32,000 nt of DNA from Acaryochloris thomasi RCC1774 (GCF_003231495.1 NZ_PQWO01000010.1:169645-201644); one strand, 5' to 3'. Counted from the first letter of the stretch, positions 4,076 to 14,571 are shown. The notes: generated from the letters alone by a model not told the origin. Made by a program: numbers and translations.

Positions 4076-5146
4076 ATGTTACAGATAGCACAGGAATTAT
4101 CGATCGATCAGAAGCAGGTCGAGAAGTTTTGCCAAGAAATTTTGCCTCAGGTGTCCCGCACCTTTGCAATCAGCATCCGATTCTTACCCGGCAATCTCGG
4201 GCGCTCTGTTCTTTGTGGCTACCTACTTTGCCGCATTGCCGACACCATTGAAGACGACCCGGTTGCCACAGTTGAGACCAAAATTCGTCTCCTTGACTGT
4301 TTCCTCAACTGCTTTGAGGATCCCAGCGTTGCCAACGCCTTCCCACAATCCATTGAGCATTTAGAGGGGGAAGCAGCTCATCTATTGTTAGTGGAGCACA
4401 CTGATTTAGTCTTTGCCCTCTACCGCAGTTTGACAGAGCAATCCCAGCAAACCCTCCGTCACTGGGTCACCGAGATGGTGCAGGGAATGCAGAAATTTGT
4501 CCATCGCTATCCTCAGGGGATTCGGATCAAGACCTTAGAGGAATATCAAGAGTACTGCTATTACGTGGCGGGCGTGGTCGGCTATTTGCTCACGGACCTT
4601 TGGTACGAGCATTCCCCCAGCGTCGATTTTGAGATCTATCACGTACTGCGGCAAACCTGCGCGGCCTTTGGTGAAGGTCTACAAACGGTCAACATCTTGA
4701 AAGACATTGCCTGGGATGCTGAACATGAGAACTCTATCTATGTGCCCCAGCAGTCTCTAGAGGCCCACGGCAGCAGTCAAGAGCTGCTACTCAGTCCTGA
4801 TCATCTTCACCAGAATCACGCGGCGATTAAGTCCTTGGTAGAACTCGCTTGGAAGGACTTGGACAAGGCGGCAGAATATCTGCTGTCAGTACCTCGATCT
4901 GCGATTCCGATTCGGTTGTTCTGCATCTTGCCTTTGGTGTTCGCCTACGGGACGCTGCGAGATATCACGAAGTCTACGGCGATGCTGGTTTCTGGCGGCA
5001 ACGTCAAGATCTCACGATCTGAGGTGAAGTCTTTGATCATGGTGGGTCCGATTGCAGCCGTTAGTAATGGTCTGATCCGCTGGCTCATTGATCAGGTGAA
5101 ACAGCAGCCTTTCCTGTGGGGTTCCAAGCCACAAGACGTGGGTTGA
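4076..5146 (+). CDS. sqs: Squalene synthase (farnesyl-diphosphate farnesyltransferase), squalene/phytoene synthase family
   Basis: Motifs are SRTFAISIRFLP, CRIADTIEDD (Asp-rich), YCYYVAGVVGYLLT and GLQTVNILKDI. The hydrophobic C-terminal region matches SQS-type rather than CrtB-type enzymes. Confidence 0.8.
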   Translation: MLQIAQELSIDQKQVEKFCQEILPQVSRTFAISIRFLPGNLGRSVLCGYLLCRIADTIEDDPVATVETKIRLLDCFLNCFEDPSVANAFPQSIEHLEGEAAHLLLVEHTDLVFALYRSLTEQSQQTLRHWVTEMVQGMQKFVHRYPQGIRIKTLEEYQEYCYYVAGVVGYLLTDLWYEHSPSVDFEIYHVLRQTCAAFGEGLQTVNILKDIAWDAEHENSIYVPQQSLEAHGSSQELLLSPDHLHQNHAAIKSLVELAWKDLDKAAEYLLSVPRSAIPIRLFCILPLVFAYGTLRDITKSTAMLVSGGNVKISRSEVKSLIMVGPIAAVSNGLIRWLIDQVKQQPFLWGSKPQDVG

Positions 5147-5783: not shown

Positions 5784-5873
5784 TGGTTTGCGCTGGATGG
5801 GTGTGTCTCAACACCAAGATTGGTGAAAAGTATTGGTATCTTAGATGGATATCTTTTAAAGTCATCATCCTGC

Positions 5874-7028
5874 ATGAGTAATAAACCTGCCCAACGCCCG
5901 CAATCTCCTAACTTCTCTTCTGGTCCTTGCTCTAAGCACCCCGGCTGGTCCGTGCAGTCTCTCGGTAATGCGCTGGTGGGCCGGTCTCACCGCTCCAAGC
6001 CAGGGAAAGCCCGTATCAAAGAAGTCATCGACGGCACCAAAAAGATTTTAGGCATCCCCGATGATTACCTTTGTGGCATCGTCCCTGCCTCCGATACCGG
6101 TGCTGTGGAACTAGCGATGTGGTCACTCCTAGGTGAGCGAGGTTTGGATATCTTGGCCTGGGAAAGCTTTGGTAAGGGCTGGGTTACTGATGTACAAAAG
6201 CAGCTCAAGCTGTCAGATTGTCGGGCAATGGAAGCTGACTATGGACATTTACCTGATTTATCGCAGGTGGATTGCGATCGCGACGTTGTTTTCACCTGGA
6301 ACGGCACGACTTCCGGCGTCAAAGTTCCTAACGGCGACTGGATCCCTGACAATCGCCAAGGGTTAACCATTGCTGACGCCACCTCTGCCACCTTTGCCAT
6401 GCAGATGCCCTGGTCCAAGCTTGATGTGGTCACCTGGTCCTGGCAAAAAGTGATGGGGGGCGAAGCGGCTCATGGAATGCTAGTGTTGAGCCCTCGCGCC
6501 GTCGAACGTCTAGAAAGCTATACGCCCGCTTGGCCGCTGCCCAAGATTTTCCGGCTCACCAAGGGCGGCAAGCTGATTAAGGGGATTTTTGAAGGGGCGA
6601 CCATCAATACACCGTCGATGATTTGTGTTGAGGATGCTCTAGATGGTTTGAAATGGGCTGAGAGCTTGGGTGGGCTGACCGCTTTGATCAAAAGATCAGA
6701 AGCGAATTTAGATGCGATCGCAACCTGGGTTAACCAAACCCCTTGGGCAGATTTCCTGGCCGTCGAACCCGCCACCCGCTCCAACACCTCAATCTGCTTA
6801 AAAATTGTAGATCCTTGGTACACCGCTCTACCTGCAGAGGAGCAGGCCCAAAAAGCCAAACAGATGGCAGCACTCCTAGATACCGAAGGCGTCGCCTACG
6901 ACATCGCCTCCTATCGAGATGCCCCACCCGGACTCCGCATTTGGGGTGGGGCAACTGTCGAGGCTGCCGACATTCAAGCTCTGCTGCCTTGGTTAGACTG
7001 GGCCTTCGCGGAGATCAAAGAGGGATAG
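5874..7028 (+). CDS. serC: Phosphoserine transaminase (SerC, short alpha-proteobacterial/cyanobacterial type)
   Basis: The N-terminus [25 protein letters not shown] is characteristic of this SerC subtype. I placed the start at the ATG at 5874 inside the longer ORF that begins at 5820. Confidence 0.8.
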
Positions 7029-7066: not shown

Positions 7067-7423
7067 ATGTCAGATGCGATGAATGTGTTGGGCAGTAAAC
7101 TTGAAAGCTGCTGCACGTCTCCAATGACTGGTTTTTATCGTGACGGGCTTTGCCGCACGGGGGGCGGTGACTTTGGGGCCCATGTCGTCTGTGCTCAGAT
7201 GACAGATGACTTTCTCGCCTTTACAAAGGCAAAAGGCAATGATCTCAGCACACCATCTTCTTATTTTCCAGGGCTAAAGCCTGGAGATTGCTGGTGTCTG
7301 TGTGCCTCTCGCTGGCAAGAAGCGATGGTTGCAGGCGTCGCCCCGCCTGTGGTGTTGACGGCAACTCATGCCAGTGCCTTAGAATATGTGTCGATAGATG
7401 ATCTGCAGCAGCACGCCCTCTAG
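7067..7423 (+). CDS. DUF2237-family protein
   Basis: 118 aa reading NVLGSKLESCCTSPMTGFYRDGLCRTGGGDFGAHVVCA...CLCASRW, the Cys-rich pattern of DUF2237. The stop lies 10 nt before the next start. Confidence 0.8.
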   Translation: MSDAMNVLGSKLESCCTSPMTGFYRDGLCRTGGGDFGAHVVCAQMTDDFLAFTKAKGNDLSTPSSYFPGLKPGDCWCLCASRWQEAMVAGVAPPVVLTATHASALEYVSIDDLQQHAL

Positions 7424-7433
7424 GAACAACCCA

Positions 7434-8807
7434 ATGGCTAAAAATACACCCCCTACCTTTAATTTGCTCAGTATTGGTCACCGGGGAGTCGGTAAAACCG
7501 TTTTCTTGGCTGGTAGCTACGCCGAACTACAGTCCGGGCGGCAGGTGGAATCAAAAGATATTTGGTTTGAAGGGGCTAACGATCAGGCCCAGACGACCCT
7601 TGAAAAGCTGTTGGGTTACATGGCCCAAACAGGCCAATATCCACCCGCCACCATGAAGGTGACAGACTTTACCTTCACAGCCAAGGCACATGAGGGCCGT
7701 AAAGCTAAAACCCTCTGTGAATTTCGCTGGGCCGATATCCCGGGCGAAATTTGTCATCTCGACAATCCTAACTTTGAGTCCATGCTGCTCAAATCCCACG
7801 GCTGCTGCGTGTTTATTGACGCAGGCGCTCTGGTACAAGACCCTCAGTACTTAGCGCAGCTAGAAGATACCGTTAAGCAGGTGGAAACAATTTCTTCCTT
7901 AGCCGCTCAGAGTGGCCTTCAGTATATCTTCGCCCTGATTTTGACCAAGTGCGATCTACTTGATGCGGGGCCAGCCAAGCTGATCAAAATTGAGCAAAAG
8001 TTGCGATCGCTCACCACTCGCCTAGATGAAGCTAACACCATTTACCGTCGTTTCTATTCTTCAATCTCGATTATTCCAGCCGGTGGTACCTCAGTCGTCA
8101 AAGCAGAAGGTGCCTCGGTCCCCATTCTGTGGCTGGTCTCAGAACTGAGCAAGGTCTATCAGGCTCAAACACCCAAGAATTTGGGCAGCGGCTTTGAAAA
8201 AACGCTCTCAAATGCCCAACCAGAACCCAGCTATGCCAACAATATTTCAAGTCCTGGCCTGACTTCTAACCGTCAGACCGGCATTTTGCCCAAAGTTCTC
8301 GCCGGAGTTGCAGCGGTCGGAGTTGTCGGGGGACTCCTCTTCGGGCTGAGCAAACTACTGCCCAATAGTAGTTCAGTGATCGCGGGTAGCAGTTCTGAAA
8401 TCGGTGCGCAATATGAGAAAGCGCTGAGGGAAAATCCAGAAGATACGGAGGCACTGGCAAAGCTTGTTGAGCTACACCAAGAGCAAGAGCAATATGAACC
8501 AGCGATAGGCTACCTAGAACAGCTCATTGCTCTCAAGCCTGATGATATGAATCTCTACTTTCAGAAAGCCGGTCTGTACGCGATCATGGGTCGCAAAGAC
8601 AAAGAGGAGGCATCCTATGACGAGATTTTAGCGAGGCAGGGAAATAACGTCATGGCTTTAACAAATAAAGCGATTCTGCGCAGTACGCAAGGCGATTTGG
8701 ATACAGCAAAGACCTTGTTCGCGAAGGCAGAAGCATCCGTCCCTGAAGGGGAACTTAAACAGACAATTCAGGACGTCGCTAAAGATTGGTTAGAGGGTAC
8801 GGAATAG
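7434..8807 (+). CDS. Ras-like/TRAFAC P-loop GTPase domain, one predicted TM helix and a C-terminal TPR array
   Basis: G1 is GHRGVGKT (aa 15-22), G3 is DIPGE (aa 101-105) and G4 is TKCD (aa 171-174). The hydrophobic helix is ILPKVLAGVAAVGVVGGLLFGLS (aa ~284-306). TPR-like repeats span aa ~325-440. The start is at MAKNTPP. Confidence 0.75.
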   Translation: MAKNTPPTFNLLSIGHRGVGKTVFLAGSYAELQSGRQVESKDIWFEGANDQAQTTLEKLLGYMAQTGQYPPATMKVTDFTFTAKAHEGRKAKTLCEFRWADIPGEICHLDNPNFESMLLKSHGCCVFIDAGALVQDPQYLAQLEDTVKQVETISSLAAQSGLQYIFALILTKCDLLDAGPAKLIKIEQKLRSLTTRLDEANTIYRRFYSSISIIPAGGTSVVKAEGASVPILWLVSELSKVYQAQTPKNLGSGFEKTLSNAQPEPSYANNISSPGLTSNRQTGILPKVLAGVAAVGVVGGLLFGLSKLLPNSSSVIAGSSSEIGAQYEKALRENPEDTEALAKLVELHQEQEQYEPAIGYLEQLIALKPDDMNLYFQKAGLYAIMGRKDKEEASYDEILARQGNNVMALTNKAILRSTQGDLDTAKTLFAKAEASVPEGELKQTIQDVAKDWLEGTE

Positions 8808-8989
8808 TCCAGGCCAGCAGAGTCTCTAACAAAGTCAAGGAGAGAATAGTCACCGCCCAGGACCGAAAGGATTCATAATAAAGGCAGTGCTTCCGCGGGG
8901 GTTAGGAAACACTAACTTAAAATTTTGGCAACTCAAGTCTAGCCGCACGGATCTACCCGTAGGGGGGTGACCGTTATTGATAGGAACCT

Positions 8990-9802
8990 ATGTCGTTAGT
9001 CGTCGGCCAGATTGTCTACTCCAGCTTCCCTCGGATTGGCTATCAAATCTTCGCCAACGCTGAGATGCCAGAGTCTGTGCAGTCTGCATTCGTTGAAGAT
9101 ATTGTTCATAAACATTGGGATGTCTATGAGCCACCACCGCCAGGATATCGGGCAGGCTTTATTCATCAAGCTCATCCTGACCACACGTTGTTTGGTTGGC
9201 TCTTCAATGATGGGGACGACGATCATGGCCGTCCCCATACGCCCTACTGCTTGAGCTACCACCTCAATCAACCCCTCGAATCTGACATCGCCAATTTTAT
9301 TGTTCAGTGCCTGCAGAAAGGGCCAGTCGCACTCATCCCAAGACACATCATCCCTGAACAGCCTGGGCAACTTGAAATTACGAGTGACTATGAACCGGCG
9401 GGCCTTGGCGTCACATTTACAGCAGTGCAGCAGCAGCAAATCCAAGAACAGCTTCAGCACCCATCACTACTGCAGTGTTTCTTGGCTGATAGCGGTGTAC
9501 CAACCCTCATAAATGAACCCATAACAAAGGCTGTAGAAGATGAATTCATCGAGCCTCAGGTATGGCACCAGCCACTGATTCACCCAGATTTGGCGGCTCC
9601 CGCTCCTGCACAATCAGTAGCTACAGCCTCAGGTCAACGGACGTTGCCCACCTTGACGACATCTCAGCAGAAAGGAGACCTGGCCACTCTTTCTGCTGGT
9701 CCTCCTTCGGGGAACCCTCCTGGGCAGCGGGCTGTGACGCGCAAGCCCCCATCAGAGGACTTAGCCCGTCAGATTATCTCGATCTTAGACGAAACGCTTT
9801 AA
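8990..9802 (+). CDS. Conserved hypothetical protein with a globular N-terminal domain (~135 aa) and a Gln/Pro-rich disordered tail
   Basis: 270-aa ORF. The N-terminal region reads IVYSSFP..GYQIF...WDVYEPPPPGYRAGFIHQ...TLFGWLFNDGDDDHGRPHTPYCLSYHL. It is followed by QQQQIQEQLQ, a Pro-rich tract and an acidic C-terminus ILDETL. Confidence 0.65.
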   Translation: MSLVVGQIVYSSFPRIGYQIFANAEMPESVQSAFVEDIVHKHWDVYEPPPPGYRAGFIHQAHPDHTLFGWLFNDGDDDHGRPHTPYCLSYHLNQPLESDIANFIVQCLQKGPVALIPRHIIPEQPGQLEITSDYEPAGLGVTFTAVQQQQIQEQLQHPSLLQCFLADSGVPTLINEPITKAVEDEFIEPQVWHQPLIHPDLAAPAPAQSVATASGQRTLPTLTTSQQKGDLATLSAGPPSGNPPGQRAVTRKPPSEDLARQIISILDETL

Positions 9803-12016: not shown

Positions 12017-12535
12017 ATGGTGGCTCCTACTGAAGAGCTAATCGCGTCTGTCCCAGGACCAGAGGCGGACCCTATCTTGGCACTGCAGGCTGCAGAGCGT
12101 CAGGAATCGATTAAGGCAGCTTTATTTTCAGCAGTGGCGGTGGCGGTCACGTTTAGTGCGCTGACGGCTTTCAACCAGATCGTAGCGACGGCGATTCCGT
12201 CTTTATGGATGCTGCAAATGCAGGGGCTGAACTGGCAGGGGCTAGGCAGTGGTGCGATCGCAACTTTAGCGGGCTGTGTGTTTGGCATCAACTATCGCTA
12301 CGCGGTGCGCACCGATCGCAATCCGCATCTAGGGTCAGGAGTAGTGATGGCATTTGGCACGGTACGGGGACTAGCCCAGCTTGATGTGGGACTAATGGCG
12401 CAGGGCGTGATTTGGCCGTTTGTGGTGCTGGCGGCGGAGAGCTTGTTTTTATTTGCGATCGCACGTCTCGTACTCGACCTTGTTCTCCGGCTAGGCTGGG
12501 TAAAATATTCGGTTCTGGAAACCAACTCAGACTAG
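12017..12535 (+). CDS. Hypothetical integral membrane protein
   Basis: The ORF has about 4 hydrophobic segments. The ATG at 12017 lies in frame within the TTG-initiated ORF 11972..12535. Its stop overlaps the stop of the convergent protease gene (shared CTAG). Confidence 0.5.
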   Translation: MVAPTEELIASVPGPEADPILALQAAERQESIKAALFSAVAVAVTFSALTAFNQIVATAIPSLWMLQMQGLNWQGLGSGAIATLAGCVFGINYRYAVRTDRNPHLGSGVVMAFGTVRGLAQLDVGLMAQGVIWPFVVLAAESLFLFAIARLVLDLVLRLGWVKYSVLETNSD

Positions 12536-14571
12536 AGGCTATTGGCTCGCTCTAGCCAAGTCTCAGCGGAAGAGGACTCTCCCTGCTTTTGATAGAGCTT
12601 GGCAACCTGACGATAATCGGCCTTCGCCCCTTCGATCTGACCCGCCTTTTCCCGAGCATCACCGCGCACAATGTACCAGCTGGGCTGCGAAGGCTGGAGT
12701 TTAATCAAGGTGGTGAAGTCTTTGATCGCGGCTGGATACTGCTCCTGCTTTTCGTATAACTGGCCCCGATTGTAATACAGCGAAAAAGAGCGGGGGGTTA
12801 GAGCCACAAGCTGGTTATAGGCTGAGATCGCACCCTCTAGATCATTCATATCTTCACTGAGGGACGCGATTTGCTCATAGGCACGCGTATTGCGAGGATT
12901 AATCTTGGCCATCATCCGATAGTCTGCGAGCGCTCCCTGGGGGTCACCACTATAGCGACGGACATGGGCACGGCGATCGTAGGCTTCTGTATCTTTGGGG
13001 TTGATCTTGATTAACTGTGAATAGTCTTTGAGCGCCCCTTGATGATCCCCCTGGACGAAGAGCATACCGCCACGGGCGCTGTAGGCGAGGGCATTCTGGG
13101 GATCCAGACGAATCATGGCTGAATAGTCTTGAATGGCGGACTGCTGATCCGATTGAGCCATATACAGGGTTGCCCGCCATAGATAGGCCTGGAGACGGTT
13201 GGGGTTCAGCTCAATCACCCGACTAAAATCAGAGAGTGCACCTAATGTATCGCGACTGGCATTACGGTAGGCACCCCGCAGCCAATAGGCTTGCTCTGCC
13301 TTCGGATCAAATGCAATCACCTGGTCTAGATCCTGCAGTGCAGCTTGGGTTTGACCACTTGCGATCGCATAGTTAGCCCTGGCCAAATAAAGACGAGCCT
13401 CACGGGGCGAAGTTTGAATGACCTGCGACAAAACCGCCCGCGCACCCACATAGTCTCCCGACTGGGCCTTGATGGCAGCAGTAATCAGAGCATCATCCAC
13501 GGGGGAAGGCGGAGGAGCAGTGGCGGGCAGGTGCGCCTTAAGCGTCATTCCCATCGCTTTGGACTGCTTTAGAAACGCTTCAATAGGAATACCGAGATTA
13601 AAACCTGTTTTAACGCGAATGTCGGTATTGAGAGTTGACGCTTCCAGGCGACTGTCCACATCGCCTCGACCGTGGATACCTACCAGTTCACCCTCACGAT
13701 TAAAAACGCCGCCACCACTCATCCCAGGTAAGGTACGGTTCGTGTAGATCATGGCATAGCCATCGTCAAAACTGCGACTGCTGCGGGCGGTAATTTTACC
13801 ATCGGTAAAGTTGTAGACCGGCTGGGTAATGGCGGCTGTTGTGGCCGGGAAACCTGCCACAAAGACCGGCAACCCTTCGCTGGCCGTTTGAGCCTTGGCC
13901 AGCGAACAGACGGTGTAGGTGCGATCGCTCTCGAAGGTCACTACGGCTAAATCAATGCTTTTTAAGGAACGCACCTCTCTTGCTGTGTACTGCTGCTGAT
14001 CGGCGGTGGTAATGCGATAGGGAATATCGCGGGCAGCCACGACGTGAGCTGCTGTCAAGAGGGTGTAGGTGTTGCCTTGGCGCTGGATAATCACGCCTGA
14101 CCCCTCAGTGATGCCATTCCCCAAGCTGACGGTGACTTGTTTGGCCTGCTTAGCAATGTCACTCGTCGCCAGCGCGACTTGAGGTGCCTTCGGCTTGCGG
14201 GTCCGGGGCAAAGGCCGTGCATCTGTTTGGCAAGGCGCGGCAACGGCTCCCGTTGTGACACCGCCAGGAAGCGGAACGGCGCTGCCTAAACCCTGGAGCG
14301 GGAGACCGGGCTTTTTGGTCACAACCTGACCTTCGATGAGCACGCCATGCCCAATGCTGACGTGCGGGCCAATTCTCACGGTGGCGGGCTGCGGCGAACT
14401 CCCGACGGTCAAAGGCGATAGGCCCACTGGTAATGTCGGCGCGGCGGTGCGATCGCAGCTTTCAGTGGAGGTCTGAGCCTGACTCGATTCTGAGACCAAT
14501 ATCGCTGACAGACCCAGTCCGTTCAGCCCCATCAACAGCAATCCCCACGCTGTACCCCGATGTCGCTTCAT
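12532..14571 (-). CDS. Secreted trypsin-like (S1/S1C) serine protease fused to a long TPR array
   Basis: Signal-like N-terminus (GLLLMGLNGLGLSAILV). Triad context is TAAHVV (His), IDLAVV (Asp) and GMSGGGVF (Ser). About 8-9 TPR repeats follow (AYxxRGxxxxxxGDxxGAxxDYxxxIxxNP). Confidence 0.8.
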   Translation of the reverse strand: MKRHRGTAWGLLLMGLNGLGLSAILVSESSQAQTSTESCDRTAAPTLPVGLSPLTVGSSPQPATVRIGPHVSIGHGVLIEGQVVTKKPGLPLQGLGSAVPLPGGVTTGAVAAPCQTDARPLPRTRKPKAPQVALATSDIAKQAKQVTVSLGNGITEGSGVIIQRQGNTYTLLTAAHVVAARDIPYRITTADQQQYTAREVRSLKSIDLAVVTFESDRTYTVCSLAKAQTASEGLPVFVAGFPATTAAITQPVYNFTDGKITARSSRSFDDGYAMIYTNRTLPGMSGGGVFNREGELVGIHGRGDVDSRLEASTLNTDIRVKTGFNLGIPIEAFLKQSKAMGMTLKAHLPATAPPPSPVDDALITAAIKAQSGDYVGARAVLSQVIQTSPREARLYLARANYAIASGQTQAALQDLDQVIAFDPKAEQAYWLRGAYRNASRDTLGALSDFSRVIELNPNRLQAYLWRATLYMAQSDQQSAIQDYSAMIRLDPQNALAYSARGGMLFVQGDHQGALKDYSQLIKINPKDTEAYDRRAHVRRYSGDPQGALADYRMMAKINPRNTRAYEQIASLSEDMNDLEGAISAYNQLVALTPRSFSLYYNRGQLYEKQEQYPAAIKDFTTLIKLQPSQPSWYIVRGDAREKAGQIEGAKADYRQVAKLYQKQGESSSAETWLERANSL

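Follow-up and report, generated by a model that had tools for sequence, protein, structure and literature searches.

A membrane-anchored DO-GTPase-like protein and its modular partner in Acaryochloris thomasi: a candidate two-gene switch of cyanobacteria

There are few bacterial GTPase switches that have a dedicated regulator; MglA with MglB is the best studied of them, and the survey of Ras-like GTPases in prokaryotes deals with MglA and Rup alone. A further group is that of the DO-GTPases, a family of the TRAFAC clade whose Walker B motif contains a conserved glutamate; frequent in the DO-GTPase/GAP1 systems in which it was defined are a pair of GTPase paralogues in tandem, zinc ribbons at the N-terminus and a third component, GASH or FNIII (Kaur, Burroughs, Iyer and Aravind, eLife 2020, PMC7159879; Pfam PF19993 and PF19975). 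Longin-type GTPase-activating proteins (GAPs), for their part, carry the arginine finger inside the longin domain and have a GP motif before beta2 (PMC12290439). The present work concerns a stretch of 32,000 nucleotides from Acaryochloris thomasi RCC1774 (GCF_003231495.1, NZ_PQWO01000010.1:169645-201644; hereafter the window), in which a gene for a GTPase with a transmembrane (TM) helix and TPR repeats (7434..8807, 457 residues plus stop; this and all other features lie on the + strand unless noted) is followed by a gene for a protein of 270 residues plus stop (8990..9802), referred to below as the partner. On balance, the two genes are best seen as encoding a membrane GTPase switch of cyanobacteria whose second component, the partner, is modular, and no description of this pair was found in the literature searched. 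What is new, in this regard, is a distinct cyanobacterial branch of DO-GTPase-like switches, with a different architecture and with a partner domain that is absent from Pfam, NCBIfam and PADLOC.

The DO-GTPase systems are the closest of those described. Shared with them are the TRAFAC G domain, the DxPGE signature, the association with a membrane and a co-evolving partner, encoded by the following gene, whose C-terminus carries variable domains. The window family differs in its apparent restriction to cyanobacteria, in being without N-terminal zinc ribbons, tandem GTPases, GASH or FNIII, and in its anchor, a single C-terminal TM helix that is often followed by TPR; moreover, the window partner is not a recognisable GAP1 and the window copy stands in a stable housekeeping context. 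The likeness to MglA/MglB and Rup is one of arrangement, in that a bacterial GTPase gene lies beside a presumed regulator gene and some members of the partner family have Roadblock/LC7 domains. In contrast to those proteins, the window G domain falls outside MglA and Ras by hidden Markov models, is membrane-anchored and has about 250 residues with insertions, and the window partner, unlike MglB, has no Roadblock domain.

Two eukaryotic comparisons are also of use. The longin GAP complexes (FLCN-FNIP, GATOR1 NPRL2/3, C9orf72-SMCR8) offer a working analogy, in that the window pair would likewise combine a membrane G protein with an alpha/beta platform domain of the order b-b-a-b-b-b-a; the partner has a near-invariant loop arginine, and the Roadblock domain added in some members of the partner family echoes the longin/Roadblock pairings. 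The differences are that there is no sequence similarity, that the structural matches are weak (Foldseek E about 5e-3), that the GP motif is missing as such and that the window G protein is neither Rag nor Arf. In the case of SR-beta/SRX, a membrane-anchored TRAFAC GTPase binds the longin-like SRX, and SR-beta (5ck3_D) is among the structural matches of the window GTPase. SR-beta, however, is N-terminally anchored and eukaryotic, and no kinship in sequence was seen with the window GTPase or its partner. A weak SRPRB match (E 0.003) was seen only in one Roadblock-bearing homologue of the partner (P0131), and no link to the targeting machinery was seen in the loci of the GTPase and its partner.

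The GTPase: G domain, membrane helix and TPR repeats

The start of the GTPase gene is placed at the ATG at 7434. An in-frame ATG also exists at 7398, but the N-termini of the homologues match the 7434 position (MAKN.PPTFNLL). From this start the protein leads into a G domain (aa 1-~245, 7434..8168) which, from its PF19993 match, its AlphaFold model and the Foldseek comparison of that model, is assigned a TRAFAC-class, DO-GTPase-like fold. Three motifs can be read directly from the sequence, these being the G1 motif or P-loop, GHRGVGKT (aa 15-22, 7476..7499), the G3 or Walker B motif DIPGE, with its DO-GTPase-type glutamate (aa 101-105, 7734..7748), and the guanine-specificity motif G4, TKCD (aa 171-174, 7944..7955). 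Across 78 family sequences G15, R17, G20, K21, T73, P103, G104, E105, T171, D174 and F207 are invariant. Several further positions are nearly so: D101 is kept in 77 and C173 in 73, while residue 22 is Thr in 75 and Ser in 3 and residue 172 is Lys in 63 and Gln in 15. Such conservation of the G motifs is far beyond chance, and the original prediction that the GTP-specific motifs would be present and kept is upheld in orthologues and paralogues alike. T73, within 'ATMKVT' (7650..7652), is a candidate for the switch I (G2) threonine, a role suggested by its position between G1 and G3.

The DxxG motif is trailed by Glu105, not Gln, in 78 of 78 sequences, such that the DO-GTPase hallmark, a Walker B glutamate within DxPGE, is present throughout. 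When the protein is scanned against Pfam (E <= 1), the sole G-domain family to match is PF19993, DO-GTPase2 (E 4e-7, aa 14-209), and a precomputed match to PF19993 is found in many of its homologues. A profile search of 1.84 billion protein cluster representatives recovered only 198 proteins at E <= 1e-3, 86 of them at E <= 1e-30; the weak tail of the profile and its nearest outgroups consist of DO-GTPase1/2 proteins. From these sequence comparisons the window GTPase belongs to a compact family within or beside the DO-GTPase clade. One distant match of the profile (P0274, 1124 aa) has an unusual architecture, a GUN4-like domain (E 2.2e-36) being fused to a DO-GTPase1-type G domain.

The AlphaFold model of the protein, built as a single chain from a 33-sequence alignment, has a mean predicted local distance difference test score (pLDDT) of 80.3 and a predicted template modelling score of 0.77, with aa 1-255 confident and most ten-residue blocks therein at 85-96. 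All of the top 50 Foldseek matches listed from the PDB are TRAFAC GTPases at a probability of 1.00. They include EF-Tu (E 3.7e-8), eEF1A, Ran, RagC/D, Arf/Arl6 and Rab, together with the SR-beta chain mentioned above, and further EngB, G-alpha, Hbs1 and CysN-type GTPases. In other words, judged by the model, the term 'Ras-like' would hold for this protein at the level of the TRAFAC fold alone.

Beyond the G domain lies a poorly conserved linker (aa ~246-282, 8169..8279), as seen from the alignment, which is largely predicted to be disordered (pLDDT < 50 at aa 258-300). It is followed by a single TM helix (aa ~283-306, 8280..8351; Kyte-Doolittle 2.19 over 19 residues) and by about three TPR repeats (aa ~318-440, 8385..8753), which are predicted to be extracytoplasmic, that is, in the periplasm or the thylakoid lumen. 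The repeats are identified by TPR_17 (E 1.8e-11), TPR_19 (3.6e-8) and TPR_14, all of which exceed their cut-offs over aa ~325-426, and by designed and natural TPR structures in the PDB that match aa 318-445. The order of G domain, single helix and TPR, which had been proposed from this one sequence, is therefore found, and it is kept in the family: 75 of 77 family open reading frames (ORFs) have a TM-grade helix after the G domain. The homologues fall into two size classes, one of ~320 aa, with only a short tail beyond the G domain and TM helix, and one of ~450-470 aa, to which the TPR part is added.

With regard to topology, the N-terminus leads directly into beta1 and the P-loop and has no signal peptide, and the G domain is therefore expected to be cytoplasmic. 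In the family as a whole, the 15-residue flanks of the TM helix contain a mean of 3.1 Lys plus Arg at its N-terminal end and 1.15 at its C-terminal end. This positive-inside bias backs the earlier suggestion that the membrane separates the TPR array from the GTPase, and supports, at the level of sequence, a cytoplasmic G domain with the TPR or tail across the membrane, in the periplasm or the thylakoid lumen. Two members, one from a metagenome-assembled genome (MAG) of the Gloeobacterales (L058) and one other (L073), have no TM-grade helix (Kyte-Doolittle 1.02 and 0.63) and no adjacent partner, and these may be soluble, stand-alone versions of the GTPase.

The partner: linkage, N-domain and exchangeable C-terminus

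Gene neighbourhoods were compared in the best 80 of 109 genomic loci, with one genome per species. The N-domain of the partner (~165 aa) was found in 56 of the 80 by tblastn and in 59 by ORF clustering. It typically lies downstream on the same strand after a gap of 11-40 nucleotides, and is sometimes directly upstream, the stop codon of one gene then overlapping the start codon of the other. Both flanks span at least 1.5 kb in 68 loci; in 47 of these the partner is within 400 nucleotides of the GTPase and in 52 (76%) within 2.5 kb, the latter comprising 31 of 36 short GTPase forms and 21 of 32 TPR forms. Moreover, the clustering of 794 filtered ORFs from the 80 loci returned the GTPase and the partner as the only conserved families; a third conserved component was not found among them, the other neighbours being lineage-restricted.

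The two proteins also diverge together. Over 55 pairs, the pairwise distances of the G domain and of the partner N-domain are correlated with a Mantel r of 0.79, where the maximum of 2000 permutations was 0.25, and the nearest neighbours agree in 33 of 55 cases. A part of this correlation is species phylogeny. Several genomes, however, have multiple paralogous pairs, and for this reason the correlation is also a sign that the two members of each pair diverge jointly. The claim that the gene at 8990..9802 is a conserved, co-evolving neighbour of the GTPase accordingly stands.

All loci with a taxon named in the record title, a Gloeobacterales MAG included, are cyanobacterial, with one exception. 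The exception (L032, JAAUUT010000015.1) is a MAG labelled 'Candidatus Gracilibacteria', the TPR-form GTPase of which closely resembles a Hydrococcus copy (L029); a binning error is the probable cause, not an occurrence outside the cyanobacteria, to which the family is apparently restricted. Paralogues are present in several of the genomes, with three in A. thomasi and four loci from one MAG.

The partner consists of a folded N-domain (aa 1-167, 8990..9490), a linker and a short C-terminal peptide. The N-domain is delimited by its conservation and by a single-chain AlphaFold model with ten-residue block means of 85-97 over aa 1-160. The protein has no match in Pfam (E <= 1), NCBIfam or PADLOC. 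Among 46 sequences, Q7, S12, G17, W43, F68, G69, W70, D77, P85, L108, G111 and G140 are invariant, and R81, in a 'DDxGR' loop between b4 and b5, is kept in at least 90%. The predicted order of elements (DSSP) is b1-b2-a1-b3-b4-b5-a2-(b)-a3-(b), to be set beside the longin order of b-b-a-b-b-b-a-a. Only two Foldseek matches have high probability: TagF, at 0.98 (E 4e-3), and, at 0.99 (E 5.3e-3), one chain from the FLCN-FNIP2-Rag-Ragulator complex; another entry for FLCN-FNIP2 (6nzd_I, 0.57) and GATOR1-KICSTOR chains (0.54-0.60) come lower, and the remaining matches listed are at 0.30 or less and mostly GFP-like barrels. No link between TagF and the longin fold was found in the literature searched, the paper on DENN mentioning neither TagF nor type VI secretion, and this match is left uninterpreted.

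Because of these Foldseek matches and the order of strands and helices, the modelled N-domain suggests, tentatively, a longin-type GTPase-platform fold. By analogy with the longin GAPs, R81 is a candidate arginine finger. The invariant G17 lies ahead of beta2, as would the GP motif, but has no following Pro. A Roadblock identity was also considered for the N-domain and found no support from sequence, with an hhalign probability of 0.2, no Pfam match in 49 members and no PDB sequence match for the profile. Of the original prediction of a regulator-like protein downstream, the conservation is thus plain and a weak resemblance to longin regulators (Foldseek E ~5e-3) can be added, whereas kinship with MglB or Roadblock finds no support in Pfam or hhalign.

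The linker (aa ~168-254, 9491..9751) is variable and poorly conserved among orthologues, is modelled with low confidence (ten-residue pLDDT means of 41-54 over aa 171-250, and values < 50 at 170-181, 209-214 and 244-249) and is probably disordered. At its end stands an acidic, amphipathic peptide, SEDLARQIISILDETL (aa 255-270, 9752..9799), predicted to be helical over aa 255-269. Its pattern, SEDLA[RS]QI[IV]S[IL]LDETL, is strictly kept in all 10 sequences of its clade, the window protein and nine orthologues, down to 46% overall identity, and its conservation gives the peptide the look of a docking motif. C-terminal peptides are frequent ligands of TPR domains. Here, however, the membrane is predicted to lie between the TPR repeats and the cytoplasmic partner, and an interaction of the two is therefore not proposed.

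In other members of the partner family the C-terminus is replaced by quite different modules. In Acaryochloris marina MBIC11017 (L007:7397-10531) and in a second locus (L009:7590-10748) the N-domain is followed by a Peptidase_C14 caspase domain (aa ~229-450) and then by a WD40 propeller, giving proteins of ~1045 aa; as read from these sequences, an orthocaspase would there be directly hard-wired to the GTPase module. WD40 alone is found in partners of ~600 aa in many Nostocales, PBP_like_2 in five loci (L065, L071, L072, L077, L075), Roadblock/LC7 in two proteins (L068, P0131), V4R in one (L051) and SepF in another (P0304). The Roadblock/LC7 domain (PF03259) is absent from the window partner in the Pfam scan, and is a C-terminal add-on in some relatives only. 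Three partners (L041, L067, L038) have a TM segment of their own, as judged by eye from hydrophobic stretches in the alignment.

In a subset of loci of the Nostocales type (L020:5621-5923, L063:3427-5589, L027:1829-3283 and about ten more), a short GTPase and a WD40-bearing partner lie beside three other genes. These encode, with labels read by eye from the sequences, an ABC exporter of ~720 aa with a C39-peptidase-like N-terminus (12 loci), an HlyD-like protein (11 loci) and, directly upstream of the GTPase, an ORF of ~100 aa with a double-glycine-type leader ('...EQEQINGG'; 7 loci). This neighbourhood may be lineage synteny or may reflect a link to peptide export.

A proposed mechanism and the alternatives

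The following working scheme is proposed. The GTPase would be a nucleotide switch, anchored in the membrane by one helix and with its G domain in the cytoplasm. Binding of a ligand or protein by the external TPR, or the state of the membrane itself, would bias the alternation of the G domain between its GTP and GDP states. The cytoplasmic N-domain of the partner most likely binds the G domain, either as its cognate regulator, whether GAP or guanine nucleotide exchange factor, or as an adaptor that reads its nucleotide state. The partner's C-terminal portion would then be an exchangeable, lineage-specific output or input module, reduced in the window protein to a flexible linker and a 16-residue acidic helix that probably docks a protein, such that the partner may couple the nucleotide state of the G domain to a downstream target. 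The swappable C-termini suggest, in this regard, that a single design of switch has been put to use with many different inputs or outputs.

Of all this, the identity of the domains, the conservation of the motifs and of the TM helix with its charge bias, and the adjacency and co-divergence of the genes are established; the physical contact of GTPase and partner, the direction of signalling, the role of the partner as GAP, exchange factor or effector, the membrane concerned and GTP hydrolysis itself are inferred. Several observations weigh against this account. An adjacent partner is missing in 16 of the 68 well-flanked loci, mostly in TPR-bearing forms, which shows that a GTPase gene need not have the partner gene beside it. 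In the window itself the two genes, a putative transcription unit, are 182 nucleotides apart. The DO-GTPase2 score, at 30.4 bits, barely exceeds the gathering score of 27. The longin assignment is weak, with Foldseek E-values of ~4-5e-3 and TM-scores of 0.2-0.26 on the full-length model, while the partner profile has no PDB sequence match and an hhalign probability of 0.2 against the Roadblock domains of its own family. Lastly, the flanks of the TM helix in the window GTPase hold one Lys or Arg each, on account of which the topology of this particular protein is taken from the family trend.

A more ambitious version of the two-gene switch can be put forward only tentatively, as a possibility that is more doubtful than the switch itself. 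It is that of a transmembrane G-protein system, spread across the cyanobacteria, with a DO-GTPase-like switch in the cytoplasm, a TPR sensor outside and a longin-like 'handle' for plug-in modules. Such a system might be a bacterial counterpart of the logic of Rag-FLCN/GATOR1 and SR-beta/SRX, passing signals across the plasma or the thylakoid membrane to varied outputs, cell-death proteases among them. If it is true that the partner N-domain is longin-like, the pairing of a longin platform with a GTPase would extend to bacteria, which bears on the origin of the eukaryotic systems. More immediately, the pair is a concrete two-gene target for cyanobacterial cell biology, with multiple paralogous copies in several of the sampled genomes, and in Acaryochloris it would be a candidate for what regulates the orthocaspase-WD40 proteins from upstream.

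Other explanations have to be set against the two-gene switch. A DO-GTPase-type conflict system, whether anti-phage or for programmed cell death, would have the GTPase as a threshold switch and the partner in the role of GAP1, with variable sensor or effector domains brought into play on infection; this, the main rival, is judged unlikely. The closest described family was defined in such systems, which sometimes have TM segments and TPR-bearing components, the partner C-terminus is highly variable, with Peptidase_C14 and WD40 in A. marina and relatives, and there are several paralogous pairs per genome. Against this, the paper that defined these systems has them as 'nearly completely absent in cyanobacteria' (PMC7159879). 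The expected parts are also missing: the partner has no GAP1 match in Pfam at E <= 1 (the GAP1 models in that copy of Pfam being unverified and very remote homology being possible) and consists of one globular domain of ~165 aa as opposed to the three of GAP1-N, GAP1-M and GAP1-C; neither the listed ORF starts nor the alignment of the N-termini would allow for zinc ribbons, tandem GTPases are absent in the 77 loci with a GTPase ORF, and no third conserved component, in the place of GASH or FNIII, was found in the 80 loci. The window partner is without an effector domain, having only its conserved 16-residue peptide, and the PBP-like, V4R, SepF and Roadblock modules of its relatives look like sensor or cell-biology modules rather than toxins. 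Nor does the locus resemble a mobile island, since no mobile or defence genes lie near the window pair and its neighbourhood is one of housekeeping genes, collinear in relatives. PADLOC returned nothing for the partner and, for the GTPase, two weak matches (E 0.0095 and 0.048) in its TPR part; with no meaningful match to either protein, a known defence system was rejected.

It might be, alternatively, that the GTPase works alone, for example as a factor in membrane assembly or biogenesis whose TPR part is a chaperone-like platform, and that the downstream gene is a syntenic bystander. TPR membrane proteins of cyanobacteria are often assembly factors, and both the loci that lack an adjacent partner and the 182-nucleotide gap in the window fit with such a role. 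We regard it as improbable all the same, since adjacency to the partner persists across cyanobacterial orders while other neighbours change, either gene may come first in the pair and their junctions are short or overlap, and the two proteins co-diverge, paralogues included.

Least plausible of the cellular roles, and indeed very improbable, is that of a Ras-like small GTPase whose gene would form a cluster of three with those for DUF2237 and an MglB-like regulator, by analogy with MglA/MglB and Rup, as the original prediction had it. The three co-oriented ORFs do exist as claimed: the DUF2237 gene (7067..7423, 118 aa; Pfam PF09996, full length, E 2.4e-53) has its stop at 7421-7423, leaving a gap of 10 nucleotides to the GTPase. 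The downstream gene is conserved, some relatives of the partner have Roadblock/LC7, the G1, G3 and G4 motifs are kept and the fold resembles Arl6, Rab and Ran. These motifs, however, are common to all TRAFAC GTPases and are therefore not diagnostic of the Ras superfamily. The models for Ras, Roc, Arf, MMR_HSR1 and Gtr1 gave no match to the protein at E <= 1 in the Pfam scan, and, together with the Glu in place of Gln after DxxG, this speaks against the proposed kinship; membership of Ras, Roc, MMR_HSR1, Arf, MglA or Rup was rejected for want of a Pfam model match at that threshold. In Ras, G1 and G3 are ~47 residues apart. In the window GTPase the spacing is 86, not the Ras-superfamily spacing that had been supposed, because in the model a helix and a beta-hairpin are inserted, the folded domain of ~245 residues having an extra helix and hairpins overall. 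The window partner, for its part, has neither a Roadblock domain nor profile similarity to one.

As to DUF2237, tblastn places it upstream of the GTPase in 2 of the 80 loci, L001 and L002, which are the closest orthologous loci (86% and 75% identity). The neighbourhood is collinear in these two, and the linkage is therefore ordinary local synteny: DUF2237 was rejected as a component and is a local neighbour outside the module. The three-gene cluster is thus largely refuted, both in its DUF2237 part and in its Ras-family membership.

An ATPase, or a pseudo-GTPase scaffold without activity, is hardly tenable as an identity for the N-domain: TQCD replaces TKCD in 15 of 78 sequences and GTPase activity is here a prediction from sequence and model, but Asp174, Lys21, T73 and DxPGE were counted invariant in 78 of 78, and the absence of AAA+, RecA or KaiC ATPases from the top 50 Foldseek matches listed, on which an AAA or KaiC-like identity was rejected, leaves the conserved TKCD and DIPGE in a fold whose listed relatives are all GTPases.

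Spacer, neighbouring genes and annotation

The spacer between the GTPase and the partner (8808..8989, 182 nucleotides) is shared in its 3' ~130 nucleotides (8860..8989) with L001, and this part is missing in L002, where the gap is 15 nucleotides. No terminator-like or promoter-like site was seen in the spacer and no Rfam family matched it at E <= 1, and an RNA element or terminator was rejected on these grounds. From its conservation, the segment at 8860..8989 could be a clade-specific 5' untranslated region or promoter.

Beyond DUF2237, the genes that recur in L001 and L002 alone are a 402-aa gene (5820..7028), orf10889, a DedA/VTT gene and orf11972, while an NAD-binding dehydrogenase gene and a squalene/phytoene synthase gene (4076..5146) recur in L001 alone. 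The 402-aa ORF has no Pfam match at E <= 1 and is ~90% identical in L001 and L002; its listed TTG start is probably too far upstream. The window contains no tRNAs. On the opposite strand (12532..14571, -), 2.7 kb downstream of the pair and not linked to it in other loci, is a gene for a 679-aa protein with a Trypsin_2 domain (E 1.8e-22) and a long TPR array.

Finally, the product of 7434..8807 is identical (100%) to P0001 of A. thomasi RCC1774, the record of which bears the name 'Beta-barrel assembly-enhancing protease'. No peptidase domain is present in the protein, and the NCBIfam model M48_BAM_BepA matches it at E 0.028, far under its cut-off. The name looks like a misannotation by way of weak TPR similarity to BepA, and merits correction.

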